This document shows positions 6,384-64,000 of a stretch of 64,000 nt of DNA, piece by piece (the stretch's first letter is position 1; each line of letters opens with the position of its first letter). This stretch comes from a virus: positions 96,001-160,000 of the IMG/VR virus record IMGVR_UViG_3300036985_009306; one strand, written 5' to 3'. The notes under the pieces were generated by a model, which had not been told where the DNA came from, made no database searches, and worked only from the letters and a program-made list of their open reading frames with translations. A program made the translations under genes and the position numbers.

Positions 6384-6418
6384 AAACTATTAAATCAAAC
6401 TTTTTGTTATGATAGATA

Positions 6419-6862: not shown

Positions 6863-6929
6863 GTTTGATTATATCATATTTTTTTGAAGTTCTGCCATTT
6901 TTTAATGTTTTTATGGAGTCTGCTAAATT

Positions 6930-7175
6930 ATGCTTTTAATTCAATATTTCTCTGATGGGACTATGTCTTTCAATTGGGATCAACTTCCTGAGCCATTGAA
7001 GAGTGAGACAGAGATAAGAGACAAAATTTTTAATGAGCTTCAAGAAAAAATGAGAATTAATGAGAATGTAACAACAAGAAAATTGTTTGACCTCAATAGA
7101 TATGCAATAGAGAGAATAAGAACTGAACTTAGGGCTAAAGGCAAAAAAATACAGATTAATAATATTAAAAATTAA
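6930..7175 (+). CDS. Hypothetical protein
   Basis: 81-aa ORF with GGAG SD. Confidence 0.5.
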   Translation: MLLIQYFSDGTMSFNWDQLPEPLKSETEIRDKIFNELQEKMRINENVTTRKLFDLNRYAIERIRTELRAKGKKIQINNIKN

Positions 7176-7192
7176 ATTTATTGGAGATTAAA

Positions 7193-8768: not shown

Positions 8769-8805
8769 CAATTTATAAGTTAAAAAAACTGAAAATTATG
8801 ATAGA

Positions 8806-8840
8806 AATGTAACAGGGCGTATGCTCTGTTACATTTTTTG
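8806..8840 (+). terminator. Rho-independent terminator
   Basis: AATGTAACAG / CTGTTACATT hairpin followed by T tract. Confidence 0.7.
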
Positions 8841-8856
8841 TTTTTAGAGAGTAAAG

Positions 8857-50525: not shown

Positions 50526-50560
50526 AAAGATTGTTAATTTTTTTCTAAAAGATATATAAT

Positions 50561-50590
50561 AAGAGACAGAGGCAGATACTTCTGTCTCTT
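50561..50590. terminator. Hairpin after the two-gene operon
   Basis: AAGAGACAGA / TCTGTCTCTT inverted repeat. Confidence 0.5.
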
Positions 50591-50915
50591 ATGTTAAGAA
50601 CTAACAAATGAAAACAAATCTATTTAATTCTAAAAATATAGAAGATAATAATAGAAAATTTTGTAATACATCTTCTTGTAGATTAAATAGTAATAAAAGA
50701 TGTAGAGCACCATCAGAAGTTCATCGAACTTGTAGAAAAAAGACATGAATCAAAGACAAGAGAAAATTAAAATACTTTGTGATCAACTCCGAAAAATTGC
50801 TAATATAAAATATTTGGGGGGAGAATTTTTTTTGTGTTGATGAACCATTGAGAGTTAGTCAAATATTTATGACTCAAGAGTGTTTTGATGAAATAAAACA
50901 ATGGGCGGATAACTG

Positions 50916-51140
50916 ATGATATTAATTTCAAAAGAAATTTCTAAAAATTTTGTATTTGAAATTTCTTTTTTTCATAAGTTGAGAAATTTTAAAGATGGAA
51001 TCTCATTTTTAGAGTTTGATGTAAATTTAGACTTGTATAAAGGAGATCACAATCCTCAATTTGAGATGTGTTTAGTTATATTGAATTTTAAGATTTTTGA
51101 AACTAATATCTATAATATTAATCATGGTGAGATGATATGA
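50916..51140 (+). CDS. Hypothetical protein
   Basis: Operonic small ORF. Confidence 0.45.
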   Translation: MILISKEISKNFVFEISFFHKLRNFKDGISFLEFDVNLDLYKGDHNPQFEMCLVILNFKIFETNIYNINHGEMI

Positions 51141-51352
51141 AAGTTGAAAAAGCTATAGAAGTCATTCATGAATATTGGCCAGATACTAACCAAATTATGT
51201 GGGGCGAGGCTTTAGAGACGCTCATTCAATGTGTGCTTGACAAAGTTGAAATAATTAATGAATTAAGAGTTTTGAAGCATCTAATAGAGACAGAAAGTAA
51301 GACTACAGCATTGCAAATTATTGATGCAATGATTGAAGATGCCCATTCTTAG
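51137..51352 (+). CDS. Hypothetical protein
   Basis: ATGA overlap. Confidence 0.5.
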   Translation: MKVEKAIEVIHEYWPDTNQIMWGEALETLIQCVLDKVEIINELRVLKHLIETESKTTALQIIDAMIEDAHS

Positions 51353-51369
51353 TCCACCGCAAAGACTGC

Positions 51370-51759
51370 ATGTCTAATAGTAGAAGTAATACTAAAAAAG
51401 TTATTATTTTGATGAAAGGTAAAATGAAAGAAGTAAAAATCTCTAAAAAACTTGCTATTAAAACATCTTATTCAGTTAATTCATGTAGTTGTTCTTTATG
51501 TCAGAGAGAAAGAAAGATAGAAAAATTAATAGAGAGAAAAAATTTTAATGAATTAGCAAATTATACAAGAGAACTTTCTCGTTTGCTTGTAAATGCTGAT
51601 ACATATGCTGAACATGTTGTAAATGTGGTAAAAACATACAAAAAGGAGAAAAACCCTTTTCTATTTATGAGATATTGTTTAAAATGTAGTCCTGAGAGTA
51701 GTTCTGAGATTATAATAAAGCAGACTCAATCAAAAATGAGATTTATATCAAAAGGATAA
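51370..51759 (+). CDS. Hypothetical protein
   Basis: CSCSLC motif. Confidence 0.45.
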   Translation: MSNSRSNTKKVIILMKGKMKEVKISKKLAIKTSYSVNSCSCSLCQRERKIEKLIERKNFNELANYTRELSRLLVNADTYAEHVVNVVKTYKKEKNPFLFMRYCLKCSPESSSEIIIKQTQSKMRFISKG

Positions 51760-51762
51760 AGT

Positions 51763-51972
51763 ATGCAAGATATATCTGACGAAATCAAGATTCAATTACT
51801 AAAAAATAGAATTTATGCTGCAATTGAATGTCTAGAAAAAACAACTACTTCATCAGGGCTTTCTAAGGGCTTTTATGATCCTGATGCAAAAGATGCTCTT
51901 CTTATTCTTAAGGGTATGAAAGATTGCGAACTTAATCTTTCTCCAGATCCGAATGACTTCAGATATGTTTAG
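51763..51972 (+). CDS. Hypothetical protein
   Basis: AAAGGA SD. Confidence 0.5.
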   Translation: MQDISDEIKIQLLKNRIYAAIECLEKTTTSSGLSKGFYDPDAKDALLILKGMKDCELNLSPDPNDFRYV

Positions 51973-52168
51973 ACTTGAAACTTATGAGGTACAAAATGAG
52001 CTTAGAACTATCAGGATCAAGCCCAGTTGTTGTTGCTAAAACAGGACTTACAACAAATGGTGTAAATTTGTTTGATGCTCAATGTCCAATTGTTGGAGAC
52101 ACAATTCTTTGTGTTGAGTTGAATGGCAATATCATATAAATCACACGATATCTCGATTAGGAGAATAT

Positions 52169-52624
52169 ATGATACACCTTTATCTTTTGTCAGGAAAAAA
52201 AGTCCAGCAACATTTAACTGTCGATGGTTGGTTAGAATCTCAATCCCATCCAAATTTGTCAGAACCACAACTAACTGGAACTCATTTACAATACTCATTT
52301 TGTTCTCTATGTCATGGTACAGGTGTTGATCCGGTACAAGAAGGCGAATTGACAAGAATATGTAGACGATGTCAAGGAGCAACATATGAAACAGTGAGTG
52401 TGGCTCCACATATTGGCGGCTATAGAGACGTTGCTACCACATTGGATATAATAGGAAAACCCTGGATTGAATGTTTCAAAATTACACCAGAATATAAAAA
52501 TCTACCTGCTGAAATTCAACATCAAGCATTAGATGGATTGAAACAATGGTGTTACGAAGAAGAACAAAGAATAAATGCAGAAGATCCTGTAAAAACAAAT
52601 AATAAAATAAAGTTCATATGTTAA
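52169..52624 (+). CDS. Hypothetical protein with DnaJ-type CxxCxGxG Zn motifs
   Basis: CSLCHGTG...CRRCQGA; AGGAG SD. Confidence 0.55.
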   Translation: MIHLYLLSGKKVQQHLTVDGWLESQSHPNLSEPQLTGTHLQYSFCSLCHGTGVDPVQEGELTRICRRCQGATYETVSVAPHIGGYRDVATTLDIIGKPWIECFKITPEYKNLPAEIQHQALDGLKQWCYEEEQRINAEDPVKTNNKIKFIC

Positions 52625-53177
52625 AAAAATTCTTTTGCAATTAAAAGAATATGTAGACGATGTCAAGGAGCAACAGTGAGAGTACCTATTATGTCAACTT
52701 TAACAAATAGAAATGGTAGACAATATGATTTAAATGATTTAGAACTGTCAACTTTAACAAATAGAAATGGTAGCCAATATGATTTAAATGATTTACAACC
52801 TGGTAGAGTTGAATTCTTAACAAATGGTACACCTTTACAAGTTACTGGTCCTGGTATCTTACAAGTTCCAACTTCCGAGAATGAAATTACAACCGAATTA
52901 AGAGAAAATATGGATGAAATTCATAAAGACATAGAATTTGTGCATGAAAACAACAAAATGAAGTTTATACTGACTGGGCAAACTGGAACTCATTTACAAT
53001 ACGGTGTTGATCCGCCGGGTCCCTCACTTGCTTTTTGCTCAATGTCCCTGATAAGAAGCAGGTACAATTCGGCCTGTGTGGTACAAGAAGGCGGATTGAC
53101 AAGAATATGTAGACGATGTCAAGGAGCAACTTTAACTAAGAAATGGTAGACAATATGATTAAATGATTTACAACCTG
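52274..53177. repeat. Patchwork of dispersed and tandem direct repeats
   Basis: AACTGGAACTCATTTACAATAC at 52274 and 52981; AAGAATATGTAGACGATGTCAAGGAGCAAC x3; 54-bp tandem at 52692/52746 with a third partial copy near 53127. Confidence 0.85.
52691..53149 (+). CDS. Mosaic hypothetical ORF built partly from repeated segments
   Basis: STLTNRNGxQYDLNDL x2; C-terminus copies the preceding gene. Confidence 0.35.
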   Translation: MSTLTNRNGRQYDLNDLELSTLTNRNGSQYDLNDLQPGRVEFLTNGTPLQVTGPGILQVPTSENEITTELRENMDEIHKDIEFVHENNKMKFILTGQTGTHLQYGVDPPGPSLAFCSMSLIRSRYNSACVVQEGGLTRICRRCQGATLTKKW

Positions 53178-53326
53178 ATGGTAAGTTTAGTTCTAGTATT
53201 AGATTTTGGCTGCACAATTCAAATTGACAAACCACTATCTATAGATTACTCCTCAATATAGAAAACAATTACCAAAAACTCAATATTGAATGCTGAAATT
53301 CCTCTTAAAAAATAAATAAAAAAATA

Positions 53327-53357
53327 ATGTACATTTTAAAAAATAAATGATATATTA
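53327..53357 (+). promoter_or_regulatory. Putative promoter of tRNA array 1
   Basis: TGTACATTT...TATATTA with the same spacing as the copy at 63557. Confidence 0.6.
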
Positions 53358-53381
53358 ATGATATACAATAGGAAAAGGACT

Positions 53382-53519
53382 ATGAGACTTCACCTAACTT
53401 CATCAAAAAAGATATTATGGCAGCAACTGCCTGATATGGGTGTCAATAATAACTCCCATAAAACACTGTCATGTTTGTCGAGTCTCTATTTTAAAGTGAG
53501 ACAAGAAGGTGAAGCTTAA
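53382..53519 (+). CDS. Putative attenuator leader peptide (45 aa) MRLHLTSSKKILWQQLPDMGVNNNSHKTLSCLSSLYFKVRQEGEA
   Basis: GGAAAAGGA SD; the last codons and stop overlap the antiterminator strand; codons match the downstream tRNAs. Confidence 0.7.
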   Translation: MRLHLTSSKKILWQQLPDMGVNNNSHKTLSCLSSLYFKVRQEGEA

Positions 53520-53587
53520 AGTTTAAAAAGAAAATATTTTTAAAAAGGCTCACCTTCAAAAAAAAGAAGATGAGCCTTTTTGATTTT
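53388..53587 (+). promoter_or_regulatory. Transcription attenuator 1 (1:2, 2:3 and 3:4 helices)
   Basis: CTTCACCT(53388)/AGGTGAAG(53507); GAAGGTGA(53505)/TCACCTTC(53550); terminator AAAAAGGCTCACCTTC-A8-GAAGATGAGCCTTTTT. Confidence 0.75.
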
Positions 53588-53599
53588 AGAGATATACTC

Positions 53600-53673
53600 G
53601 CCTCAATAACTCAAATGCTTAGAGTACTTGTTTCTTAAACAAGGAGTTGAAGGTTGAAATCCTTCTTGAGGCA
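53600..53673 (+). tRNA. tRNA-Lys(CTT)
   Basis: GCCTCAA/TTGAGGC acceptor; CTTGT-TTCTTAA-ACAAG. Confidence 0.8.
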
Positions 53674-53690
53674 AAATAAAGGAGAAACAA

Positions 53691-53763
53691 GCCGCTTTAG
53701 CTCAGTTGGTAGAGCAATGGACTGAAAATCCATGTGTCACCCGTTCAATTCGGGTAGGCGGCA
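53691..53763 (+). tRNA. tRNA-Phe(GAA)
   Basis: Canonical cloverleaf; ATGGA-CTGAAAA-TCCAT. Confidence 0.92.
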
Positions 53764-54027
53764 TTTTGACTAGAGAAAAATATGTTTGAATGTGAAACAA
53801 TTTTGAAACAATTGACAAAAAATCCAGATACAGAAATAATTCATAATCATCAACAATGTAATTCATATATAGAAAAGATGTTGACTGAACGAGAATTAAA
53901 ACGTAGATGATCTCGAAGGTGACGAGTTAACTATAAATTTTCGTACATATAAACCATAGGATGAAATTTTGAATAACAAGAAAGGGACCCGAAATGAACG
54001 ACAAAGATGGCAAATCTGACAAACTAA

Positions 54028-54116
54028 GGGTCCGTCACTTAGAGGCCGATAGTACCAAATTTTTAATTTGGAGAGTGACAAAAACTCCATCGCAGGTTCG
54101 AATCCTGCCGGGCCCA
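54028..54116 (+). tRNA. Atypical tRNA, anticodon TTT (Lys), with a long variable arm
   Basis: GGGTCCG/CGGGCCC; CCAAA-TTTTTAA-TTTGG; GAGT-GACAAAA-ACTC extra arm; GCAGG-TTCGAAT-CCTGC. Confidence 0.7.
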
Positions 54117-54136
54117 TTTTAAAAGAGAAAATAATT

Positions 54137-54430
54137 ATGTTTAAAAAATACACTAAAGAAAATTTATCAACAATGGACAATGGTTTCTATATAATGAAAT
54201 CAGATCCTAATTCTGAAACAGTGGCCAAAAATCCTAATGATGAAATTGTTGAACTAATAAATGGTCAAATAATCAATGACATCAAACTTGACATAAGCAA
54301 TGTAAATTATGAATTAATACAATTAAAAGGAGACTTTAAAAAACTTCCACATAATGGTGGAGGACCAATCAAGTTTGAATTAAATGGAAAAATAGTTGAT
54401 ATTGACAATATAAAAAGTTCTTTGAAATAA
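54137..54430 (+). CDS. Hypothetical protein within the tRNA array
   Basis: ATG 54137 directly after the tRNA. Confidence 0.5.
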   Translation: MFKKYTKENLSTMDNGFYIMKSDPNSETVAKNPNDEIVELINGQIINDIKLDISNVNYELIQLKGDFKKLPHNGGGPIKFELNGKIVDIDNIKSSLK

Positions 54431-54432
54431 AT

Positions 54433-54505
54433 AGACCCATAGCTCGTTGGTTCAGAGGCCTTCTTTACAAGTAGAATGTCGGGAGTTCGACTCTCTCTGG
54501 GTCTA
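54433..54505 (+). tRNA. tRNA-Val(TAC), imperfect anticodon stem
   Basis: AGACCCA/TGGGTCT; TTTACAA loop; GGGAG-TTCGACT-CTCTC. Confidence 0.6.
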
Positions 54506-54512
54506 AATTTAT

Positions 54513-54585
54513 ACGGACATAGCTCAATGGCTAGAGCAATGGTCTCCAAAACCATAGGCTGTGGGTTCAAGTCCTACTGTCCGCG
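54513..54585 (+). tRNA. tRNA-Trp(CCA)
   Basis: ATGGT-CTCCAAA-ACCAT; G73. Confidence 0.88.
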
Positions 54586-54593
54586 AAAATTAT

Positions 54594-54605
54594 GTTCTTT
54601 GACAT
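54594..54605 (+). promoter_or_regulatory. boxA-like antitermination site
   Basis: GTTCTTTGACAT just after tRNA-Trp. Confidence 0.5.
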
Positions 54606-54634
54606 ACTTGGTTATTTAGCAAGTTTCTTAATTC

Positions 54635-54726
54635 GGAGATTTGTCCGAGTCTGGCTTAAGGAGCCGCACTGCTAATGCGGTGAAGTTGTTATACAACTTC
54701 CAGTGGTTCAAATCCACTAATCTCCG
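54635..54726 (+). tRNA. tRNA-Ser(GCT)
   Basis: CCGCA-CTGCTAA-TGCGG; long variable arm; G73. Confidence 0.9.
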
Positions 54727-54742
54727 CTTTTTAAAGAGTTAT

Positions 54743-54828
54743 GCCCAAATGGTGGAACGCTAGACACGCTGCGCTTAGAACGCAGTATCCGAAAGGGTGT
54801 GGGAGTTGAAATCTCTCTTTGGGCACCA
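54743..54828 (+). tRNA. tRNA-Leu(TAG)
   Basis: CTGCG-CTTAGAA-CGCAG; variable arm; encoded CCA. Confidence 0.9.
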
Positions 54829-54844
54829 AAAATTAGGAATAAAC

Positions 54845-55597
54845 ATGACAAAAGAACAAATGTATCAAGACCTTTTGTCTGTTGATACATCAAAACTTGG
54901 TTGGATTTCTAAACTTTCAAAAAAATGGCATATGTCACATACATGTGCAACTAAGAAAGTGTGTAAATATTTTCCAGAAATTATTGAAAATAGTTATAAA
55001 AGAAAGTCAAAAAAGAAATATTGTCCCAAATGTAATTCTTATTTTCATAAATCATTTTTTAATAAACATAAATGCAAAAACTATTTAGAAAAATATAGGA
55101 GAAGCAGAAGAAAACTTCATACAAGAAGATCATTAATCGTTGATAAAGACATTCTTGAAAAATCTGTGAGTAAAGCTGAATCATTTAATCAAGTAATAAT
55201 AGATTTAAAACAACAAAATATTTCTATATCATTTAAAAGACTTTTCAAACTGATAAAATTTTATGAACTTTCTACTAAACATTTTCTTGGAAAAAGTTCG
55301 TTAAAAGCAAGAAAAAAACTTGAAAAAGAAGAATTTATTTTAGAATGTTTAACAAACAATTCAAAACATGCAGCTTATAATATAAAATCTAAGATTTTGC
55401 ATTTTGAAATTTTAGAATATATTTGTAATAGCTGTGGACAAAATTCTGAATGGAATAATAAAAAACTTGTATTACATTTACATCATAAAAATGGTAATGA
55501 CAATGACAATAGATTAGATAATCTAGAATTTCTTTGTCCTAATTGTCATTCACAAACAGAAACATATTGTAGGTCGAAATCAAAAAAATTGAAATAA
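54845..55597 (+). CDS. HNH homing endonuclease within the tRNA array
   Basis: CNSCG...LHLHHKNGNDNDNRLDNLEFLCPNCHSQT. Confidence 0.88.
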   Translation: MTKEQMYQDLLSVDTSKLGWISKLSKKWHMSHTCATKKVCKYFPEIIENSYKRKSKKKYCPKCNSYFHKSFFNKHKCKNYLEKYRRSRRKLHTRRSLIVDKDILEKSVSKAESFNQVIIDLKQQNISISFKRLFKLIKFYELSTKHFLGKSSLKARKKLEKEEFILECLTNNSKHAAYNIKSKILHFEILEYICNSCGQNSEWNNKKLVLHLHHKNGNDNDNRLDNLEFLCPNCHSQTETYCRSKSKKLK

Positions 55598-55610
55598 ATA
55601 CTAAATTATT

Positions 55611-55684
55611 GGCCGAGTGATGGAAACGGAATACATGCGATATTCAAAATATCGATTTTAAGAGTTCAAATCTCTTCTCGGCTA
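55611..55684 (+). tRNA. tRNA-Leu(CAA) lacking the long variable arm
   Basis: GGCCGAG/CTCGGCT; CGATA-TTCAAAA-TATCG; 5-nt variable loop. Confidence 0.75.
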
Positions 55685-55688
55685 TTAA

Positions 55689-55773
55689 GCCCAAGTGGTG
55701 CAATTGGTACCCACAACGGTCTTAAGAACCGTCGAAAGAAATTTCATTGCCAGTTCAAATCTGGCCTTGGGCA
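55689..55773 (+). tRNA. tRNA-Leu(TAA)
   Basis: ACGGT-CTTAAGA-ACCGT; variable arm. Confidence 0.85.
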
Positions 55774-55774
55774 A

Positions 55775-55786
55775 GTTCTTTGAAAA
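55775..55786 (+). promoter_or_regulatory. boxA-like antitermination site
   Basis: GTTCTTTGAAAA, matching the rrn boxA form seen in Bacillus and many other bacteria. Confidence 0.55.
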
Positions 55787-55788
55787 TT

Positions 55789-55932
55789 AAGTTGTATCCT
55801 TTAACACTTAATGCTTACATTAAATTTTGTGGTTCGACTCCACATTCCCCCAATTATGGGGGAATAGCCAAATGGTAAAGGCAATAGACTATAGATCTAT
55901 CAAAAACAGCATTATCAACTTGGATACAACTT
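55789..55932 (+). ncRNA. Circularly permuted tRNA-like RNA (T arm and acceptor 3' strand precede the acceptor 5' strand, D arm and anticodon arm; anticodon ATA)
   Basis: TGTGG-TTCGACT-CCACA-TTCCCCC-AATTAT-GGGGGAA-TAGCC...GGC-A-ATAGA-CTATAGA-TCTAT enclosed by TAATGCT/AGCATTA and AAGTTGTATCC/GGATACAACTT. Confidence 0.75.
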
Positions 55933-55939
55933 ATTTTAC

Positions 55940-56012
55940 ACTAATGTAGCTCAATTGGTAGAGTAATGGGATCATACCCCAGAGGTTAAGAGTTCGAATC
56001 TCTTCATTAGTA
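55940..56012 (+). tRNA. tRNA-Met(CAT) with initiator-like three G-C anticodon-stem pairs
   Basis: ACTAATG/CATTAGT; GGG-ATCATAC-CCC. Confidence 0.75.
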
Positions 56013-56230
56013 TTTTAAATTACAAGATTTAGATATATAAACAATCTGAGGAGGATTGTTTATGGATAATCTTGAATTAAGAAGGAATGGTAAATTTACA
56101 TGTTTAGATTGTCAGAATAACAAATCTGAGTTGTGTAAGACATGTAAGAATTGGGACCAATTCGATTTAAATGAAGAAGTCTCAAAATTGCTGTATGAAG
56201 AAAAGAGTTTAAAGAGAGATAAAAAATAAC

Positions 56231-56317
56231 GGTGGGATGGCAGAGTCTGGTTTATCGCACCTCGCTTGAGACGAGGATCTCCGAAAGGGGACGCAAGTTC
56301 GAATCTTGCTCTCACCG
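56231..56317 (+). tRNA. tRNA-Ser(TGA)
   Basis: CCTCG-CTTGAGA-CGAGG; variable arm; G73. Confidence 0.9.
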
Positions 56318-56398
56318 CTTAAAATTATGTTAAAAAAATATTTTTGTTCTATTTGTAATTGGGATTTAACAAATTCTGGTATGAGATATTCAAATTAA

Positions 56399-56493
56399 GG
56401 AAGAGTGTCCGAGTTGATCTAAGGAGCTAGTCTCGAAAACTAGTGAAGGATGAAATAAAGCCTCCGCAGGTTTAAATCCTGTCTCTTCCGCCA
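56399..56493 (+). tRNA. tRNA-Ser(CGA)
   Basis: CTAGT-CTCGAAA-ACTAG; variable arm; G73 CCA. Confidence 0.88.
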
Positions 56494-56500
56494 TTATGAT

Positions 56501-56572
56501 GATCCTGTAGCCAAATGGTAAGGTGCTGGTCTGCAAAACCAGAATAGGTCGGTCCGATTCCGCCCAGGATCT
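56501..56572 (+). tRNA. tRNA-Cys(GCA)
   Basis: CTGGT-CTGCAAA-ACCAG; U73. Confidence 0.88.
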
Positions 56573-56593
56573 TAAAATTAAAAGGGATTAACT

Positions 56594-56824
56594 ATGGAAG
56601 ACAAAGATTATGTTTTGACAATCAGGGTACCTTTCAAAGCAGCTGACGATATAGATGCTAGAGAGTATGCTAAGTCTATATTTTCTATAGATTCTCCTAA
56701 TGGAGTGAACTTAAAATTGCAGGAGATTTTTGTAAATAAAGCACCAAGAGGAGTGAATTTTTTGTCCGATTATGAGATTGCAGGATTGTTAAATACAGAC
56801 AAAGGAAAGAAAACAAGCATGTGA
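56594..56824 (+). CDS. Hypothetical protein
   Basis: AAGGGA SD; 76 aa. Confidence 0.55.
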   Translation: MEDKDYVLTIRVPFKAADDIDAREYAKSIFSIDSPNGVNLKLQEIFVNKAPRGVNFLSDYEIAGLLNTDKGKKTSM

Positions 56825-56927
56825 TAATATTGTTGTTAAAAACAACGTGTCTGCTTGGATGAAGAAGTTTTGGATATTGAATGTGTATATGAGAGAGGAT
56901 TAGACACTTTCTAATGGGAGGCATACT

Positions 56928-57200
56928 ATGTTAGACAAAAGACAAGAAGCCGTTTCTATTGCAGAAGAAGTGTTGAACGTTATTCCTAAGGAAGTTACAT
57001 ATAAAGTGCCTGGTCTGACTATGGAGGATATTAAAATTACATATAAAGTGCCTGGTCTGACTATGGAGGATATTAAAATTACATATAAAGTGCCTGGTCT
57101 GACTATGGAGGATATTAAAATTACATATAAAGTGCCTGGTCTGACTATGGAGGATTTAAGTGTTGTTAAAGTTTATGGTGACTGTAGTTTAGATGGCTAA
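56928..57200 (+). CDS. Hypothetical protein with a 14-aa tandem repeat
   Basis: GGGAGG SD; (I/V)TYKVPGLTMEDIK repeats; 3' end overlaps tRNA-His. Confidence 0.45.
   Translation: MLDKRQEAVSIAEEVLNVIPKEVTYKVPGLTMEDIKITYKVPGLTMEDIKITYKVPGLTMEDIKITYKVPGLTMEDLSVVKVYGDCSLDG
56995..57155. repeat. Perfect 42-bp tandem repeat, about 3.8 copies
   Basis: TTACATATAAAGTGCCTGGTCTGACTATGGAGGATATTAAAA at 56995, 57037, 57079 and partial at 57121. Confidence 0.95.
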
Positions 57201-57251
57201 AACATTGCGTTGTGACCGCAAAAATCGGCAGTTCAAGTCTGCTCAGTCACC
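57177..57251 (+). tRNA. tRNA-His(GTG)
   Basis: G-1/C73 signature; TTGCG-TTGTGAC-CGCAA. Confidence 0.88.
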
Positions 57252-57305
57252 CTCTCATTATGAAAAAATATTATACAGTCTACAAAACTAAGCCGCTAAT
57301 TTTCT

Positions 57306-57395
57306 GGGTCAGAGGCAACTATCGGGTGTGTTGCGCAAGACTGTAGATCTTGTCCCGTAGGGTAAACATTGGAGGTTCAACTCCTTCCTGGCCCA
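57306..57395 (+). tRNA. tRNA-Tyr(GTA)
   Basis: CAAGA-CTGTAGA-TCTTG; variable arm; A73. Confidence 0.85.
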
Positions 57396-57412
57396 TTTTG
57401 GAGAAATTTAAA

Positions 57413-58006
57413 ATGTCATCTGTAATAGTTTTGACCAAAACATATGCATATTGGGGAGAGAGATCTCTTGAAGATGCAATTAGATTGTACTTTCGTGGAA
57501 AAGCTGAGATTTTAAAAGCTGATGAAAGTAGATTGATAAAAGCAGGAATTAATAAAAATGGAATTATATTGAAAATGCCTGCACCTTTAATACTTAGATT
57601 GCTTGAATTTACAGGTATTTATCACACAAAAACAAAAATTAAATATTCAAAAGAAGCAGTTTGGAAGAGAGATGATAATTATTGTCAATTTTGGCATAGA
57701 GATGAAAAAGGAAAAAAGTTTAAATATAAATGCTCACAAGATGATAGAACTATAGACCATTTGATTCCTAAAAGTAGAGGTGGAAAACGTAATGACTTTT
57801 TAAATTGTGTGACTGCTTGTAGACATTGTAATGAAAAGATTAAAGGTAACAAAACTCCTTTAGAAGCAGGTCTTATATTAACTAAACTTCCAGAAATACC
57901 AAAGTTTAGACGGGGGGATATGATTATACTGACTTTTTCATTTAATCCTTCAAATAAAGCTCATCAAGCTCTTAGAGAGTTAATCCCTCAATTAATTAAG
58001 CTGTGA
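57413..58006 (+). CDS. HNH endonuclease (McrA-like)
   Basis: KEAVWKRDDNYCQ...TIDHLIPKSRGG...NCVTACRHCN..KGNKTPLEAG. Confidence 0.88.
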   Translation: MSSVIVLTKTYAYWGERSLEDAIRLYFRGKAEILKADESRLIKAGINKNGIILKMPAPLILRLLEFTGIYHTKTKIKYSKEAVWKRDDNYCQFWHRDEKGKKFKYKCSQDDRTIDHLIPKSRGGKRNDFLNCVTACRHCNEKIKGNKTPLEAGLILTKLPEIPKFRRGDMIILTFSFNPSNKAHQALRELIPQLIKL

Positions 58007-58142
58007 GAAGATGATTACATCTACTGGTGTGATATCGAGTTAACGACTTCCTGTTTCATAGAAAGAGCTTGACTTTGATGATCTAAAAATAATTTATAAA
58101 AACAATTGAAAAGTAGATAGAATATTTTGGCTGTTTTTAGAT

Positions 58143-58361
58143 TTGATGTCGATAGTCTCTAATATGAGAATTCTAGTTTTACATGGAATATGTGGCGACA
58201 GATATTTCTTAATAAAGGATGATGCTCACCTTTTTAGTGTTTGTATAGCTATTATTAAGGAGAGACTTAATGATGGTTATCGGTATGTTGCTGAAGAGCC
58301 TCTTGGATTGACAAAACAACAGATCGATAATCTTCCTTCTGGTAAAAGGGACATACTATGA
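58143..58361 (+). CDS. Hypothetical protein
   Basis: Small ORF. Confidence 0.35.
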   Translation: MMSIVSNMRILVLHGICGDRYFLIKDDAHLFSVCIAIIKERLNDGYRYVAEEPLGLTKQQIDNLPSGKRDIL

Positions 58362-58546
58362 AAGTCTTTCCATTGGGAACTAAAAGAGAAGAAGAAACAC
58401 AAATGATTACTATTCGTTTGAAGTGTAATCACAAAGGTTGCAGAAAAACTATACAAGGAGTTGAAGGATATAACGGTCATTTTTATTATCGTAGAAAATT
58501 TGCAGCTGATCTAAGAAATCAAGTATGGGTTTGTGATGAACATTAA
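58358..58546 (+). CDS. Small Cys/His-motif protein
   Basis: CNHKGC...WVCDEH. Confidence 0.45.
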   Translation: MKVFPLGTKREEETQMITIRLKCNHKGCRKTIQGVEGYNGHFYYRRKFAADLRNQVWVCDEH

Positions 58547-58581
58547 ACAAAGAAGAGTACAATCAATCAGGAGAGTGTAGA

Positions 58582-59358
58582 ATGAAATTCGAGTTTAAAC
58601 CTTCTCAAAAAGTTCGTCAATTCAAATGTTCTGATTTAATAGGTAAAATAGTAACAATTTCTTGTGAACATTTGTCAAGTGACAAGAAAAGTCAATATAT
58701 TCAGGCAAGATCAAAATTACTTTATGATTTTGGAATTTATGGAGTATCAGATTGGGTGCCTGTACTTGGGAAAAAAGATACAGAAGTAAAGAGAAAAATC
58801 ATAGGTTGTTGTTTGAAAGAAGCAATGAATGGTGGGAGATGTGATAATAAAGAATATTCTTCTTATCAGGATTATTTTAACAAAGACAAAAAAGAAGAAG
58901 TCAAAAAGTATTGGATAGGTGGATTGTTGGAAAGAATTGATAGAGGCGGTGGAGATGCCGATAAAACAAGTCTTATTCTTAGGTTTAAAGATTTTTCTTT
59001 AGAGAATAATACTTGGAGTATGACAGCACCTGAAGAATGGTATTCTGAGTTGCACCAACTAGAATTTCCACGTGGTTTTTATGAGACTTCAGAAGAGGCA
59101 ATTAAGTTTTTTGGAGATAAGGCTCATGATGATCTTTTTGGAGAACGGTATTTCCCTGTAATAGTTTTTCCTAAGGATACAGAGGCTAATGTTAGAGAAA
59201 TTGCTGGTATGCCTAAGTCATGTTCTAAAGCTATTATGACAAAAGAATATATTATATTTGGAACTCGTTGCAAATCTTCTGAATATACAGATGTCATTGA
59301 TAAAACTTATAAAGCAGATGGAAAAGTAGCAAAGTCTAAAGAGTGGGATTGGGACTGA
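58582..59358 (+). CDS. Hypothetical protein
   Basis: AGGAG SD; 258 aa. Confidence 0.6.
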   Translation: MKFEFKPSQKVRQFKCSDLIGKIVTISCEHLSSDKKSQYIQARSKLLYDFGIYGVSDWVPVLGKKDTEVKRKIIGCCLKEAMNGGRCDNKEYSSYQDYFNKDKKEEVKKYWIGGLLERIDRGGGDADKTSLILRFKDFSLENNTWSMTAPEEWYSELHQLEFPRGFYETSEEAIKFFGDKAHDDLFGERYFPVIVFPKDTEANVREIAGMPKSCSKAIMTKEYIIFGTRCKSSEYTDVIDKTYKADGKVAKSKEWDWD

Positions 59359-59384
59359 GTCCTTCAGTAAGAAAGTGAGATAAT

Positions 59385-59942
59385 GTGAAAGAACAATTTA
59401 TAGATCCACGAGTGAATATTATCACACATAATTTTATACGAGAAAAAATTAAAGAAATCCCAGAAGATGTAAACAAGATTTCTAATGAACAATGGGATTG
59501 GATTTTAGATTTGACAAAAGATGAAGGTCTTTTAAAACTTGAGTTTCGATGCAAGATTATTAATAAATTAGGTTTTGGTCATTCTCTTATTTTTAATAAA
59601 GAAGCAAATCAACCTATTCTTTGTATAAAGAGAGAGTTTCCAAAATGGGACAAAAGTATAGGTAAAAATGGTGGATGGTTAGTTTCTGATGAAACTCAAA
59701 ACAATCCAGAAAAAATAAAAAAAGGTTTTGAAATTATTAGACAATATTTAAAACCTATTGAAGAAACAAGTATTGTTTTTGAAGTTTGTGATCTTAAAAA
59801 ATGTTCATCTGTTTTATTTGTTAGCAAAAGAAATGTAAAACTTGTAGAAACTGATGAGAAAATTAAAGAATTTAAAAACTTTGGTATATTTATAGATTGG
59901 TTGTTTGATCAATACGCTGAACTCATACAAATGAGTGGATAA
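59385..59942 (+). CDS. Hypothetical protein
   Basis: 185 aa, GTG start. Confidence 0.55.
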   Translation: MKEQFIDPRVNIITHNFIREKIKEIPEDVNKISNEQWDWILDLTKDEGLLKLEFRCKIINKLGFGHSLIFNKEANQPILCIKREFPKWDKSIGKNGGWLVSDETQNNPEKIKKGFEIIRQYLKPIEETSIVFEVCDLKKCSSVLFVSKRNVKLVETDEKIKEFKNFGIFIDWLFDQYAELIQMSG

Positions 59943-60114
59943 AGGAAAGAGAATAATATGACAGATGAACAAAGAGCTTCTTACATTATATCGCAATCAG
60001 TTTGTGCCTTGGCCGAAATAGAATACCCTTTTCGTACTGAATCTGATTTTCAAGGAGTTGACAAACCAGTTGCGCGTTATTGTAGTTCTGCCGCGAGAAA
60101 GGTTAAGGTTCAAA

Positions 60115-60321
60115 ATGAAGTTGACAGAATGTAAGGTTGGTTGTCCTCGGCGCGGCAGAAAGAAAATTGTGGAGTTGCCGCAAACAGGCAAACAACAACG
60201 CAAGGGCGAAATTTGCCGCTGCGGTAGCAAGAAAGATTGGGAACATATTCGTAACTTTGTCGGTTGGTGTAACTTTAATTTTTGTCCCGAATGTGGCGGC
60301 AAACTGTCGCCCGTTGCGTAG
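60115..60321 (+). CDS. Cassette-like ORF whose Zn-finger C-terminus is encoded inside attC-like element H
   Basis: CRCG...FCPECGGKL; stop TAG in the right arm. Confidence 0.5.
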   Translation: MKLTECKVGCPRRGRKKIVELPQTGKQQRKGEICRCGSKKDWEHIRNFVGWCNFNFCPECGGKLSPVA

Positions 60322-60330
60322 ACGTTAGGC
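60190..60330. repeat. attC-like inverted repeat H (clearest example)
   Basis: AAC...GTTAGGC core; ACGCAA/TTGCGT, GGGCGA/TCGCCC and TTTGCCGC/GCGGCAAA arms with unpaired G60313. Confidence 0.75.
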
Positions 60331-60421
60331 ACAATTGTCAACGCTTGAGAGCTATAGTTTTTGGGAGCTAAGATGTCAAAGATGAGTATATGGGCATGTA
60401 ATTGTATTCCTGGTGTGAAAT

Positions 60422-60652
60422 ATGAGATATGATGATGGTGATTTTTTTCCTTATACTTTATTTGAAATTTGTAGGGTAGGAACGAAAGCTAAACACCAGA
60501 TTAATGATGTAAGACATTTCAAAGATGAGAAAAAGTTTGTTAAGGCTGTGCGAGGGGCAAAAATAAAGATAGATCAGAATTATGGGCGTAGAAAAATTAA
60601 AAAGTTATTGCAGGAAATTGAAAGAATAGAATATATGTATCAGTTGAATTAA
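60422..60652 (+). CDS. Hypothetical protein (start uncertain)
   Basis: 76-aa ORF. Confidence 0.4.
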   Translation: MRYDDGDFFPYTLFEICRVGTKAKHQINDVRHFKDEKKFVKAVRGAKIKIDQNYGRRKIKKLLQEIERIEYMYQLN

Positions 60653-60783
60653 TAATATTATAAGTAATTTTACAGAAGAATACGTACAAAAAGAAATGTA
60701 TGATTATTTTGGCATAAAAGAAAATGATAACATATTAAACATAAATGGAAATATAAATACAGATTTCTTTGAAGGGATTAAAA

Positions 60784-61182
60784 ATGAAAAAGATACCAAC
60801 CGTTAGTGGAATTGTATCAAAACCTGCTAATGATGAATATAGAAAAAATTATGACAGGATATTTGGTGAACAACAAGAAATTAAAGAAAAACCAATAATT
60901 AAAGAAAAACCAATAAAAAAAGAATTTATAGATTTAATTCCTATAAGAAATGATCTTGTTAATATAGAACGTAAACTTCGTAGACTATTGCACCCTTTAG
61001 AAAATTGTGGAATACGAGGTTATATAGAATGTAAACTTCGTAGACTATTGCACCCTTTAGAAAATTGTGGAATACGAGGTTACACAAGTAAAGAATTCGA
61101 GGGATTTCAATGTATTGAGATAGCCCAATCAATTAAATTTCTTTTATGTAAAATTGATGAACAAAATCACGAGGCAAAATAA
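60784..61182 (+). CDS. Hypothetical protein with internal duplications
   Basis: IKEKPI x2; 20-aa unit x2. Confidence 0.45.
   Translation: MKKIPTVSGIVSKPANDEYRKNYDRIFGEQQEIKEKPIIKEKPIKKEFIDLIPIRNDLVNIERKLRRLLHPLENCGIRGYIECKLRRLLHPLENCGIRGYTSKEFEGFQCIEIAQSIKFLLCKIDEQNHEAK
60962..61082. repeat. 60-bp near-perfect tandem duplication
   Basis: GTAAACTTCGTAGACTATTGCACCCTTTAGAAAATTGTGGAATACGAGGTTA at 60971 and 61031. Confidence 0.95.
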
Positions 61183-61265
61183 ATCATGGGTAAAAAAGCG
61201 TGCTAAGTTGTGATAGGAAGATGAAAAAGCAATAATAATTGATTTACCAAGTTTAGGAAAATTAT

Positions 61266-62273
61266 ATGCTTAGAAAACTAGCTTCAATTCGAAAAGTAAG
61301 AGACATCAAACCAATAAAAGATGCTGATGCAATTGAACTTGCAATTGTTGATGGATGGCAAGTAGTTGTAAAAAAGGGACAATTTAAACTTGATGAACTT
61401 GTAGTCTATGTAGAAATAGACTCATTTTTGCCAGAACGCTCAGAATTCGAGTTTTTAAGAAAAAGCTCACATCGAACAATGGCGGACGGTTCAACAGGAT
61501 TTAGACTTAAAACTGTTCGTTTGAGAGGACAACTTAGTCAAGGTTTGATTCTTCCTCTCAATGAAGTCAATCTTTCTAATGTCAATCTGGGTGATGAAGT
61601 TACAGAGCAACTGGGAATTAAAAAGTATGAACCACCTATTCCAGCTTGTCTTGCAGGAGAGATGAGAGGAGCTGTTCCAGGAGAAATTCATAAAAGTGAT
61701 CAAGAAAGAATTCACAATTTATTAAACTATTGGACAATCTATAAAGATTTAGAATTTGAAGAAACAGAGAAGCTCAATGGTGCTAGTATGACTGTTTATC
61801 ACAATCAGGGAGATACCGGAGTTTGTGGCCATAAATGGAATATGAAGGAAACTAAGGACAACACCCTTTGGAAGGTCTCTAGAAGGCTCGAATTAACAGA
61901 GAGATTAACTAAATTAGGATTGAATCTAGCACTTCAAGGTGAGATCATTGGAGAAGGTATTCAATCTAATTGGTACAAAATAATTGGACAAACTTTTAAA
62001 ATCTATGATATCTGGGATATTGACAATCAGTACTATTTAACAAACAAAGAACGATTAGATATCATTCAAAAACTTGGATTTGATCTTTCTATTCACGTAC
62101 CTATTCTAAATGCTCATATGAAGATTTTTGATATAATTAAAGATGTTAATGAATTTTTAGAATATTCAACAGGAATTTCAAAATTAGCCAATGTGCAACG
62201 AGAGGGTCTTGTTTATAAATCAACAGAAAGAGTTGGACCTCAAACTATTTCTTTTAAAGTATTAAAAGAGTGA
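61266..62273 (+). CDS. ATP-dependent RNA ligase (DRB0094/Rnl2-like family)
   Basis: RKLASIRKV..IKPI.DADAIE...GWQVVVKKG...EIDSFLP; TEKLNGAS; LQGEIIGEGIQ; REGLVYK; ISFK. Confidence 0.9.
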   Translation: MLRKLASIRKVRDIKPIKDADAIELAIVDGWQVVVKKGQFKLDELVVYVEIDSFLPERSEFEFLRKSSHRTMADGSTGFRLKTVRLRGQLSQGLILPLNEVNLSNVNLGDEVTEQLGIKKYEPPIPACLAGEMRGAVPGEIHKSDQERIHNLLNYWTIYKDLEFEETEKLNGASMTVYHNQGDTGVCGHKWNMKETKDNTLWKVSRRLELTERLTKLGLNLALQGEIIGEGIQSNWYKIIGQTFKIYDIWDIDNQYYLTNKERLDIIQKLGFDLSIHVPILNAHMKIFDIIKDVNEFLEYSTGISKLANVQREGLVYKSTERVGPQTISFKVLKE

Positions 62274-62277
62274 TTAT

Positions 62278-62535
62278 ATGACTAAAGAAGAATTTTGTAA
62301 AGCTCCCAAAAAGGTAACTATAGTTTTTAATCGAGTAACATCAAATGAAGAATTAAAAAGACTTTTAGATATGGCAAGTTTGAATGTCGAAAGTTCTATT
62401 ATGGGTGCTGATTTTAGTACTGTGGAAAATGGTGTTCAAAAGAGTTGCGGAACGCCTTACATCTTACAACAGGTCGAGTATGCCATGCCGGGGAATCCAC
62501 AGACGCGAGCTATCCTTGGCAACAAGGGTAGATGA
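62278..62535 (+). CDS. Hypothetical protein running into element D
   Basis: AT-rich N-terminus, GC-rich C-terminus. Confidence 0.45.
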   Translation: MTKEEFCKAPKKVTIVFNRVTSNEELKRLLDMASLNVESSIMGADFSTVENGVQKSCGTPYILQQVEYAMPGNPQTRAILGNKGR

Positions 62536-62597
62536 AAAAGGTGCAGTCCGGTTACAAGTCGGACGTTCCCCGGCACAGCACACGTCGGCCGTTTTCT
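62464..62597. repeat. attC-like element D
   Basis: ACATCTTACAACAG left end; perfect TGCCGGGGAA/TTCCCCGGCA arms; ends GGCCGTT. Confidence 0.65.
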
Positions 62598-62655
62598 TTT
62601 CTGGTGGAAGGTGTGTGACATTTCCGCTGACATTAGGGAAATTCGCGCAACGGTC

Positions 62656-62781
62656 GTACAACAGGCAAAGGAATGCCATAACCTTGACACTATAGAAGTA
62701 AAAAATAAATAGCGGTTCGGCAAACGGATGCCGTAACCGCTGCAAGAAATTTATGTCACTCTGATATTCAGATGTTGGCGC
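62656..62781. repeat. attC-like element F
   Basis: TACAACAG left end; internal AGCGGTT/AACCGCT hairpin; right arm CACTCTGATATTCAGATGTTGGCGC then AGGAG SD and ATG. Confidence 0.6.
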
Positions 62782-62794
62782 AGGAGAAAACCAA

Positions 62795-63031
62795 ATGCCT
62801 AAATTCAGACTTAGAAATTCAGTAGATTGTGAAGAAGAACAGATAGTCAATCTTATTAAAGGTACTAACGGGGAACGATTTATAGCAGGTTGGAAAGGTT
62901 GCGGTGCTGTAAAATTCAAAGCAAATGATACAGCACTAATTTTTGAAGTTATGTGTGAAAATAAACCCTATGGTGATGTCGGGGTTACTTGGGAAGAAGA
63001 TGCGTCAACGGACACTAAAGAAGTGACCTAA
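62795..63031 (+). CDS. Cassette-like small ORF after element F
   Basis: AGGAG SD directly after GTTGGCGC. Confidence 0.55.
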   Translation: MPKFRLRNSVDCEEEQIVNLIKGTNGERFIAGWKGCGAVKFKANDTALIFEVMCENKPYGDVGVTWEEDASTDTKEVT

Positions 63032-63080
63032 ACATCTTACAATTTGAATAAATAGGTGGGCGCAAAACAAAGGAGTAATT

Positions 63081-63188
63081 ATGTGTATTTTTCACAAGTG
63101 GACTAAATGGGAACAGTATACGTTCAACAAGGCTGATAAAGATAAGCGTATTGTTGAAGTTGAACGTAGACAGCGCAGGCATTGTTAA
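63081..63188 (+). CDS. Small ORF MCIFHKWTKW... (possibly truncated CxxC protein)
   Basis: AAAGGAG SD; TAA falls inside HC*VC. Confidence 0.4.
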   Translation: MCIFHKWTKWEQYTFNKADKDKRIVEVERRQRRHC

Positions 63189-63555
63189 GTCTGCGATAGC
63201 CGAAGGGTTGCCAATGACAAAATTTGAGCTGATTTCACAATTTGGAATGAATATTAAATGATAGATATTCATAGTTTAGTAGAAGTTGTGCCGAGTGATG
63301 ATGTATGTTTGATGATAAGGCTTGGTTGGTTGGCCGAAAGCTGTAAAATCGTTATGAACAGTCGGACGAGAGTAGGGTGTAAGTAACGTGCCTAAGTAAA
63401 AGAATAGCGCTCTGACTATCCCTAAGCCTATTCTTCGCCAAGCCTATATTATACTATTGCGTATAGGTAAGTCTTTTAGAGAAGTTAAAAAGATGAACAA
63501 GTATCGATAAAGATTTTGTGCGATGTCCAGGAATTTGCTGACAAAGTTAAAAAAA

Positions 63556-63586
63556 TTGTACATTTGCAATAAAATGTATTATATTA
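63556..63586 (+). promoter_or_regulatory. Putative promoter of tRNA array 2
   Basis: TTGTACATTT...TATATTA; same motif and spacing as 53327. Confidence 0.6.
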
Positions 63587-63594
63587 GATGCATT

Positions 63595-63660
63595 ATGATA
63601 ACAAAGCTTTTTCAACAGCCGCAACCACAACCCAAACACCTGAGGAGTGAAGCCTGTTGA
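63595..63660 (+). CDS. Putative attenuator leader peptide (21 aa) MITKLFQQPQPQPKHLRSEAC
   Basis: CAA CAG CCG CAA CCA CAA CCC run; stop TGA just past the antiterminator strand; downstream tRNAs are Pro and Gln. Confidence 0.75.
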   Translation: MITKLFQQPQPQPKHLRSEAC

Positions 63661-63720
63661 AATAAGTTGATATAGATTTTTCAAAAGGCCTCACTCGAAA
63701 GTTTGAGGCTTTTTTGTTTT
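63610..63720 (+). promoter_or_regulatory. Transcription attenuator 2 (1:2, 2:3 and 3:4 helices)
   Basis: TTTCAACAG(63610)/CTGTTGAAA(63654); GAGTGAAGCCT(63645)/AGGCCTCACTC(63686); terminator AAAAGGCCTCA...TGAGGCTTTTTTGTTTT. Confidence 0.78.
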
Positions 63721-63723
63721 AAA

Positions 63724-63796
63724 CAGGGCGTATTTCAGCTAGTAGAATTCTTGATTTGGGATCAAGAGGTCGGGAGTGCAAACCTCCCCGCCCTGA
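63724..63796 (+). tRNA. tRNA-Pro(TGG)
   Basis: CAGGGCG/CGCCCTG; CTTGA-TTTGGGA-TCAAG; A73. Confidence 0.85.
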
Positions 63797-63802
63797 AATT
63801 GA

Positions 63803-63851
63803 CAGGTAGTAGCTCAATTGGTAGAGCACCGCATGAGTCTCTCCTGCCTGA
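63803..63851 (+). pseudogene. Internally deleted tRNA (Pro-like acceptor; anticodon arm and most of the T arm missing)
   Basis: CAGGTAG/CTGCCTG acceptor, intact TAGCTCAATTGGTAGAGC D arm, only about 15 nt between the D arm and the 3' strand. Confidence 0.65.
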
Positions 63852-63870
63852 ATTTTATAATACAGTTCTT

Positions 63871-63944
63871 GGGTGTGTCTTCCAGTAGGTTTAGGAAACT
63901 AGATTTTGAATCTAGCAACCAAGGTTCAAATCCTTGCACACTCG
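63871..63944 (+). tRNA. tRNA-Gln(TTG)
   Basis: GGGTGTG/CACACTC; CTAGA-TTTTGAA-TCTAG; G73. Confidence 0.85.
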
Positions 63945-64000
63945 ATTTTAATAGTTATGTCGATACTGTCTAAATTTTTGCCAAAATTCAATGATTTGGT

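Follow-up and report, generated by a model that had tools for sequence, protein, structure and literature searches.

Does a phage that carries tRNA genes tie their expression to the speed at which the corresponding codons are read? This question is raised by a locus near the end of the 64,000-nucleotide stretch of DNA analyzed here (the window), where two tRNA genes, for Pro and Gln, are preceded by a short open reading frame (ORF) with a run of Gln and Pro codons and by a strong intrinsic terminator. Our computational analysis points to a ribosome-mediated (leader-peptide) transcription attenuator that gates this two-gene phage tRNA operon, an interpretation that we regard as likely.

Genomic setting of the Pro/Gln tRNA genes

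The window corresponds to bases 96001 to 160000 of a 192,143-bp IMG/VR phage record, which is estimated to be 97% complete and has a G+C content of 31%. ARAGORN identified 16 tRNA genes in the entire genome, all of them on the plus strand and inside the window. Fourteen are located at 53600-57396, and the final two are the Pro/Gln pair near the window end (Table 1). A preliminary description of this DNA had named tRNA-Pro(TGG) and tRNA-Gln(TTG) correctly as the downstream genes. The segment between them, which it took for a Pro-like remnant, is recognized as a tRNA by neither ARAGORN nor Rfam and is closer to tRNA-Gln(CUG): it agrees with the tRNA-Gln(CUG) of related phages at 48 to 49 of about 73 positions, above any tRNA-Pro, and in one of these relatives (G001, see below) tRNA-Gln(CUG) holds the position of the remnant. 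More Pro/Gln tRNA genes had also been predicted beyond the window edge. ARAGORN found none past 64000 when run on the whole genome, and the next gene downstream of tRNA-Gln(TTG), just past the window end, is a minus-strand ORF of 68 codons, followed by small genes, a thioredoxin gene, and an AAA ATPase gene.

TABLE 1 Features of the Gln/Pro unit and of related elements, in window positions
Feature	Position	Strand	Remarks
Attenuator 1	53327-53590	+	Same promoter motif as the Gln/Pro unit; antiterminator/terminator pair; 14 tRNAs follow
Attenuator 1 ORF	53382-53519		45 codons; led by a Shine-Dalgarno sequence
Rnl-type RNA ligase gene	61266-62273		1.3 kb upstream of the Gln/Pro unit
Putative promoter	63549-63585	+	A-tract; -35-like TTGTAC at 63556-63561; 18-nt spacer; -10 TATATT at 63580-63585; read from the sequence
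Leader ORF	63595-63660	+	ATG at 63595; TGA at 63658-63660; 21 sense codons
Region 1 (protector 5' strand)	63605-63618	+	Overlaps the first Gln codons; from the minimum-free-energy fold
Putative regulatory run QQPQPQP	63613-63633	+	Codons 7-13; CAA, CAG, CCG, CCA, CCC
Region 2 (antiterminator 5' strand)	63644-63663	+	Contains the stop codon; 3' part also pairs with region 1
Region 3	63678-63697	+	Terminator 5' arm plus upstream UUUCAA; pairs with region 2 or region 4
Intrinsic terminator	63683-63720	+	Arms 63683-63693 and 63704-63713; T-tract 63710-63720; from the minimum-free-energy fold
tRNA-Pro(TGG)	63724-63796	+	First gene under the proposed regulation; ARAGORN; Rfam tRNA, 54.3 bits
Decayed tRNA remnant	63797-63869	+	Most like tRNA-Gln(CUG) of relatives
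tRNA-Gln(TTG)	63870-63945	+	Final gene of the unit; ARAGORN, Rfam

At 54433-54505, where ARAGORN makes no call, Rfam also reports a tRNA match with 39 bits, which exceeds the gathering score; it may be a 17th, atypical tRNA just 5' of tRNA-Trp. A block with 50 to 55% G+C at 62440-62780, which partly overlaps an 85-codon ORF (62278-62535), folds with a z score of -4.67 (0 of 100 shuffles equal) and has no Rfam match at an E value of 1 or below; it may be an undescribed structured RNA. Homing endonuclease-type genes (HNH, DUF559) are present in or beside tRNA arrays, both in the window (57350-58006) and in two of the related contigs introduced below (L012, 11317-12063; segment L107 of G001, 6389-7231, minus strand).

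Anatomy of the Gln/Pro leader

The promoter appears to be of the sigma-70-like class, and transcription would start near the ORF. The start codon lies 9 nt past the -10 hexamer without a Shine-Dalgarno sequence, so that a near-leaderless mRNA is predicted. An alternative ORF from an ATG at 63588 (20 codons, in a Thr/Ala-rich frame) has no counterpart in the orthologous units described below and was rejected. As the preliminary description had proposed, the 21-codon leader ORF contains seven consecutive Gln/Pro codons that include both Gln codons and three different Pro codons. The run is free of T and has only two G residues. That the run exceeds chance is supported by the fact that Gln and Pro together account for 6.9% of the proteome of this phage and by the conservation of the unit in three other contigs. 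CCT, which makes up 53% of the Pro codons of the phage, is used for none of the 13 Pro codons across the runs of the four orthologues, whereas CCG and CCC make up 6% each.

Behind the ORF is a U-tailed terminator, calculated at -13.4 kcal/mol, or -15.2 kcal/mol when computed as a duplex. On the plus strand of 52000-64000, strong non-tRNA hairpins with a T-run occur at two sites only, of which this is one. The gene for tRNA-Pro starts 4 nt past the end of the T-tract at 63720, with 3 nt between them. A search for an internal tRNA promoter yielded a single hexamer pair within the unit, with a spacer of 8 nt, and this candidate was rejected.

Three mutually related pairings can be drawn. The protector is a helix of 9 bp (63610-63618 with 63654-63662) that is extended to 63605-63618 with 63652-63668 in the minimum-free-energy fold; its presence, as well as that of the U-tailed terminator, agrees with the preliminary description. 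Of the 11 nt at 63645-63655, 10 are complementary to 63686-63696 of the terminator 5' arm; the stop codon begins 3 nt further on. This arrangement had also been noted, and it proves to be part of a longer duplex: 63644-63663 with 63678-63697 (regions 2 and 3) reaches -21.9 kcal/mol, compared with -11.4 ± 2.9 kcal/mol for dinucleotide shuffles (P = 0.004), and is stronger than the terminator itself (-21.9 versus -15.2 kcal/mol). The duplex of regions 1 and 2 is calculated at -17.1 kcal/mol (P = 0.007 versus shuffles). The sequence UUUCAA opens both region 1 and region 3, and the two copies are rivals for the same CUGUUGAAA in region 2, a competition also known from classical attenuators.

Orthologous units in other phages

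Orthologous units were found in three further phage contigs. L012 is a 19.6-kb JGI contig that was reached via its RNA ligase, 67% identical to that of the window; G001, a 424-kb IMG/VR phage record, was found with a pattern from the Gln/Pro run; and G002, a 194.6-kb IMG/VR record, was reached via a neighboring Ogg-like glycosylase gene. L012 is syntenic with the window, with the minus-strand small gene, the thioredoxin gene, and other neighbors alike. Each unit has a promoter of like type, a short ORF, a strong U-tailed terminator, and then Pro/Gln tRNA genes. The leader ORFs comprise 21 (L012), 24 (G001), and 20 (G002) codons, and the Gln/Pro block covers 7 to 9 codons in all four copies, being broken by one Arg codon in L012. 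The leader of L012 is followed by tRNA-Gln(ttg), an inserted DUF559-type endonuclease gene, tRNA-Pro(tgg), and tRNA-Gln(ctg); that of G001 by Pro(tgg), Gln(ctg), Pro(cgg), Pro(ggg), Arg(cct), and Gln(ttg); and that of G002 by Pro(tgg) and Gln(ttg).

The correspondence is closest in G001. Its nine-codon run is made up of exactly six codons (CAA, CAG, CCG, CCA, CCC, and AGG), which pair one to one, by Watson-Crick rules, with the six anticodons that follow (ttg, ctg, cgg, tgg, ggg, and cct). At the codon level the match is loose elsewhere: CAG is absent from the leader of L012, which has a tRNA-Gln(CUG) gene, and is present in that of G002, which lacks this tRNA.

Two insertions of whole codons and a single synonymous CAG/CAA substitution account for the differences among the runs of the window, L012, and G001. 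Gln and Pro codons are arranged in another order in G002, and the block is still purely Gln/Pro. The C-terminal residues that follow the run are unlike in every copy, and the G002 stop codon is taken from a different frame of the conserved RNA motif. The ATG of G002 is preceded by an untranslated leader of 22 nt, in which an AAGGA Shine-Dalgarno sequence stands 7 nt ahead of the start; in the remaining copies, which have no Shine-Dalgarno sequence, 6 to 10 nt separate the -10 hexamer from the ATG. Because insertions and deletions involve whole codons and neither the C-terminal peptide nor its frame is conserved, comparison of the four copies indicates that selection acts on codon content and RNA pairing and not on a peptide. 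Such evolution, in which the ATG, the approximate ORF length, the run's codon content, and the downstream RNA pairing are kept while the peptide varies, fits a leader peptide rather than a functional peptide.

The other searches delimit how far the unit can be traced. No DNA match to 63400-64000 was found in GenBank phages, and the GenBank phage relatives of the flanking ATPase are all below 30% identity. Of about 117 matches to a 16-mer taken from the Gln/Pro run, most were due to chance, and the one in L107 (G001) was the sole real one. A stricter run pattern identified only G001 in viral contigs and metagenomes, the other metagenome matches being Gln/Pro-rich protein genes. Exact-pattern scans with the anticodon arm and T arm of tRNA-Pro returned nothing, or unrelated GC-rich phages only. 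With a structure-skeleton pattern, all of the matches listed were due to chance and none had a tRNA after it; a single match in genome contigs, within a GC-rich bacterial gene, was also a chance match. Contigs that encode other relatives of the RNA ligase (P0002 and P0004 to P0007) have no Pro/Gln tRNA unit beside the ligase gene. Terminase Pfam searches of the phage's own genome gave no match.

Some further features of these contigs concern tRNAs more broadly. In G001, a tRNA with anticodon CTA, labeled Pyl by ARAGORN, is located on the minus strand at about 1278-1350 of L150 (G001:C1:1-2500). It would be an amber suppressor, and TAG may be recoded. The same genome has an unusual tRNA-Asn(ATT) (L149, 1047-1122) and HNH-like ORFs between the leaders and their arrays. 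A Thg1-like gene lies within the tRNA array of L012 (6260-6949), and in L145 an RtcB gene (8399-9703) lies just upstream of the RNA ligase gene. Neighbors of the Thg1 and RtcB types fit a tRNA maintenance module around the arrays.

Conservation of the pairings and ribosome-masked folding

The 1:2, 2:3, and 3:4 duplexes are significant in all four copies, the 2:3 duplex ranging from -21.4 to -25.5 kcal/mol (P ≤ 0.004 versus shuffles). The RNAalifold consensus of the four-way alignment is the antiterminator 2:3 helix with 15 pairs, in which 95% of cells are paired, compared with 41 to 60% when the partners are slid by 1 to 3 columns. Column-wise covariation in the antiterminator is not significant with these four sequences, as 9 of 15 pairs are invariant and the observed score was equaled by shuffles in 265 of 500 trials. 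Joint differences in the terminator stem and region 2 do exist, with the window and L012 forming one pair and G001 and G002 the other. Cognate energies between regions 2 and 3 are only modestly better than noncognate ones, and region 2 of the window pairs better with region 3 of L012 than with its own.

The effect of a ribosome on these alternatives was modeled by masking a 27-nt footprint and computing partition functions. In the window, the terminator forms with a probability of 0.87 when there is no ribosome, 0.00 when the P site is at any of codons 3 to 12, positions that bring every Gln/Pro codon into the A site, and 0.85 to 0.88 from codon 13 to the stop. The terminators of L012 and G001 stay formed at equilibrium (at least 0.76) even with a stalled ribosome, and therefore a switch in these phages would have to be kinetic. 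As a kinetic measure, we calculated the probability that upstream RNA already occupies the terminator 5' arm at a point when the 3' arm has yet to be transcribed. In the four Gln/Pro units this value is 0.83 to 0.91 with the ribosome at the Gln/Pro codons and 0.24 to 0.40 with the ribosome at the stop, as the attenuation model requires. Across the eight leaders computed, which include those of other tRNA blocks, it is 0.62 to 0.91 at codons of the leader's own set and 0.03 to 0.40 at the stop. In six leaders, which represent three sequence types, pairing of the terminator 5' arm with the RNA that a ribosome at the stop would mask is far better than in shuffles (P = 0.0015 to 0.03 each); Fisher's combined P value is 2e-9, with orthologues among the six that are not independent.

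Leaders of other tRNA blocks

The 14 tRNAs behind attenuator 1 are Lys, Phe, Lys, Trp, Ser, Leu (three genes), Met, Ser (two genes), Cys, His, and Tyr, and codons 26 to 38 of its ORF are nearly all cognate to them. Orthologues of attenuator 1 are present in G001 and in G002, where it is duplicated. One of the G002 paralogues is rich in His and Met and precedes tRNA-His and tRNA-Met; in the other, Tyr, Leu, Ser, Lys, and Cys are abundant, and tRNAs for those amino acids follow. G001 has a third, sequence-unrelated leader of 25 codons, in which 21 codons after Met specify Thr, Ile, Arg, Asn, Glu, Gly, or Asp; it precedes tRNAs for Thr, Glu, Ile, Met, Asp, Asn, Glu, Gly, Arg, Gly, and Arg. The leaders are enriched for the amino acids of their own blocks, and in all three multileader genomes the true assignment of leaders to tRNA blocks outranks every other permutation (1 of 2, 1 of 6, and 1 of 6). 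For the Gln/Pro codons of the Gln/Pro leaders, binomial P values relative to proteome frequencies are 2.6e-4 to 1.8e-6 per genome. A further candidate of like geometry, a 26-codon Leu-rich leader at 1463-1600 of L008, has a stop-proximal strand complementary to the terminator 5' arm and precedes tRNA-Leu(tag), tRNA-Leu(taa), and tRNA-Ser(tga); the RNA ligase of this phage is 68% identical to that of the window.

The Gln/Pro unit had been regarded as an instance independent of attenuator 1. The common promoter and the similar region 2 and region 3 sequences suggest that the two are probably paralogues, and they are therefore not fully independent evidence. Nor do the short motifs said to be shared by them provide a link. 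GTGAAGC occurs 5 times in the window versus 4.3 times expected and is therefore not evidence on its own, and the pattern tried for the second shared motif matched neither attenuator 1 nor the Gln/Pro unit. The real link is the promoter motif [AT]TGTACA[CT]-N12-20-TATA[AT]T, which on the plus strand of the 192-kb genome occurs at these two sites only.

Alternative explanations

The main rival to attenuation by Gln/Pro decoding is a general sensor of translation coupling, which would report any ribosome trailing the polymerase and hence overall translation capacity, with the C/A-rich run acting either to load Rho or, as an unstructured stretch of a leaderless mRNA, to enhance translation. The base composition of the run and the lack of a Shine-Dalgarno sequence in three of four copies would suit such a sensor, as would the imperfect codon-anticodon match in L012 and G002; in addition, CA-rich downstream sequences reportedly stimulate leaderless translation in Escherichia coli. 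We nevertheless consider it unlikely, since in four genomes the in-frame block is purely Gln/Pro, apart from the Arg codon in L012, despite altered order, and always stands ahead of Pro/Gln tRNAs. Moreover, the other leaders, including the His/Met-rich paralogue, are not C/A-rich and yet match their own tRNA sets.

Both a free-standing peptide gene and an untranslated RNA fit the pattern of conservation poorly. That the ORF would be a small gene whose 21-residue product has its own function, with an ordinary terminator, the tRNAs being transcribed by constitutive leak-through or from another promoter and the pairings being incidental, has in its favor that the ORF, its start codon, and its approximate length are kept in four phages and that small genes are abundant in phage genomes. 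What is conserved, however, is the Gln/Pro block only, and in composition only; the C-terminal half is unlike in every copy and the frame is shifted in G002. With tRNA-Pro beginning so close to the T-tract (3 nt intervene) and promoter-like spacing absent from the unit, with 2:3 complementarity that far exceeds that of shuffles in every copy, and with other leaders whose codon composition tracks their tRNA sets, this explanation is very unlikely. We also consider it highly improbable that the transcript of about 125 nt acts without being translated (as a riboswitch, a protein-binding or tRNA-binding T-box-like leader, or a trans-acting small RNA) and that the ORF is incidental. The secondary structure is indeed conserved, and attenuator-derived RNAs can act in trans, as described for rnTrpL (PMC6614838). 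Against this stand the conserved ATG, the frame-preserving insertions and deletions, the synonymous changes, and the Shine-Dalgarno sequence of G002, all of which point to translation, and no Rfam family, T-box included, matches at threshold. A trans role of the terminated RNA, if any, would be additional to attenuation.

Proposed mechanism and its implications

Leader-peptide attenuation therefore remains our preferred reading of the locus. The sequence elements, their conservation, the energetics of pairing, and the correspondence between codons and tRNAs are established; from them we infer transcription start, translation of the ORF, ribosome stalling, termination, and read-through as the steps of the following cycle. 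The sigma-70-like phage promoter would fire, and the leader ORF would supply the first codons of the transcript. When charged tRNA-Gln and tRNA-Pro are ample, the ribosome would clear the seven codons, reach the stop, and mask region 2. Region 3 would then pair with region 4, and RNA polymerase would terminate at the T-tract before tRNA-Pro. When Gln/Pro decoding is slow, as could result from a host tRNA pool that is depleted, cleaved, or ill-matched to the demand of the phage, the ribosome would stall on the run and mask region 1, leaving region 2 free. Free region 2 would take region 3 as it emerges, no terminator would form, and polymerase would read through into tRNA-Pro and tRNA-Gln, which would be released by ordinary tRNA processing. 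The outcome would be an on-demand, self-limiting supply of exactly those tRNAs that the leader tests. With the leader run wired to a switchable terminator ahead of the tRNAs, tRNA synthesis is therefore probably tied to slow Gln/Pro decoding; that is, the phage probably makes Pro/Gln tRNAs only when Gln/Pro codons are read slowly.

The leaders of the other blocks raise the possibility of a broader principle, toward which we lean with somewhat less assurance. In large tRNA-rich phages, each tRNA operon would be under a codon-matched leader-peptide attenuator that meters tRNAs by the real-time speed of decoding, with feedback that could counter host tRNA depletion or cleavage. The Gln/Pro unit would be one conserved module, with separate modules for other blocks. 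If this is true, it would explain how the tRNA arrays carried by giant phages are regulated and would predict which host tRNA shortages a phage expects. It would also tie the arrays to their RNA repair neighbors, namely, the RNA ligase upstream of the unit and the Thg1- and RtcB-family genes near arrays or ligase in related contigs. With a length of about 170 bp, such units would represent compact, portable sensors of decoding speed for chosen codons.

Comparison with known attenuation systems

Leader-peptide attenuation is textbook knowledge for amino acid operons, and the trp, thr, and his type of attenuator geometry that the preliminary description recognized in this locus is supported by conservation, pairing, masked folding, and the match of leaders to blocks. 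As in trpL, hisL, pheL, leuL, thrL, and the ilv leaders, a short ORF that includes a string of test codons is located near the promoter, ahead of the first gene. Also shared with these enterobacterial leaders are four regions that form protector, antiterminator, and terminator helices (the mutual exclusion of antiterminator and terminator being computed here from duplex energies and ribosome-masked folding), a stop codon sited so that a terminating ribosome would mask region 2, and an adjacent U-tailed intrinsic terminator ahead of the regulated genes. The sensing of more than one amino acid, here Gln and Pro, has its parallel in the thr and ilv leaders, and the use of CCG and CCC resembles the preference for rare codons in the leu leader. 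There are also differences. Three of four copies of the Gln/Pro unit have a near-leaderless start, unlike the enterobacterial leaders, and the latter target biosynthetic enzymes, whereas the downstream genes here are tRNAs and the element is viral.

T-box riboswitches also choose between terminator and antiterminator according to tRNA status and have translation-related targets. However, a T-box binds uncharged tRNA via a specifier codon and the T-box motif, without translation, whereas here a predicted translated ORF is conserved. Neither T-box nor the Rfam leader families (Trp, His, Leu, Thr, and Phe) match the unit (cmscan, E ≤ 1, 50000-64000); the sole Rfam match on it, a minus-strand snoRNA with 26 bits versus a gathering score of 90, is spurious.

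To our knowledge, all leader-peptide attenuators regulate amino acid biosynthesis or synthetase genes, and a full-text literature search found no paper on leader-peptide attenuation of tRNA genes, in phages or elsewhere. A functional parallel is the pheM leader of E. coli pheST, by which Phe-tRNA synthetase is attenuated according to the speed at which its own cognate codons are read. In both cases a component of the decoding machinery would be under leader-peptide attenuation. The target of pheM is a protein gene for a synthetase, whereas the target here would be the tRNA itself, and therefore the output would feed back directly on the quantity that is sensed. The novelty of the Gln/Pro unit lies in tRNA genes as the predicted attenuator targets; the mechanism itself, as predicted, matches that of the amino acid operon and pheST leaders.
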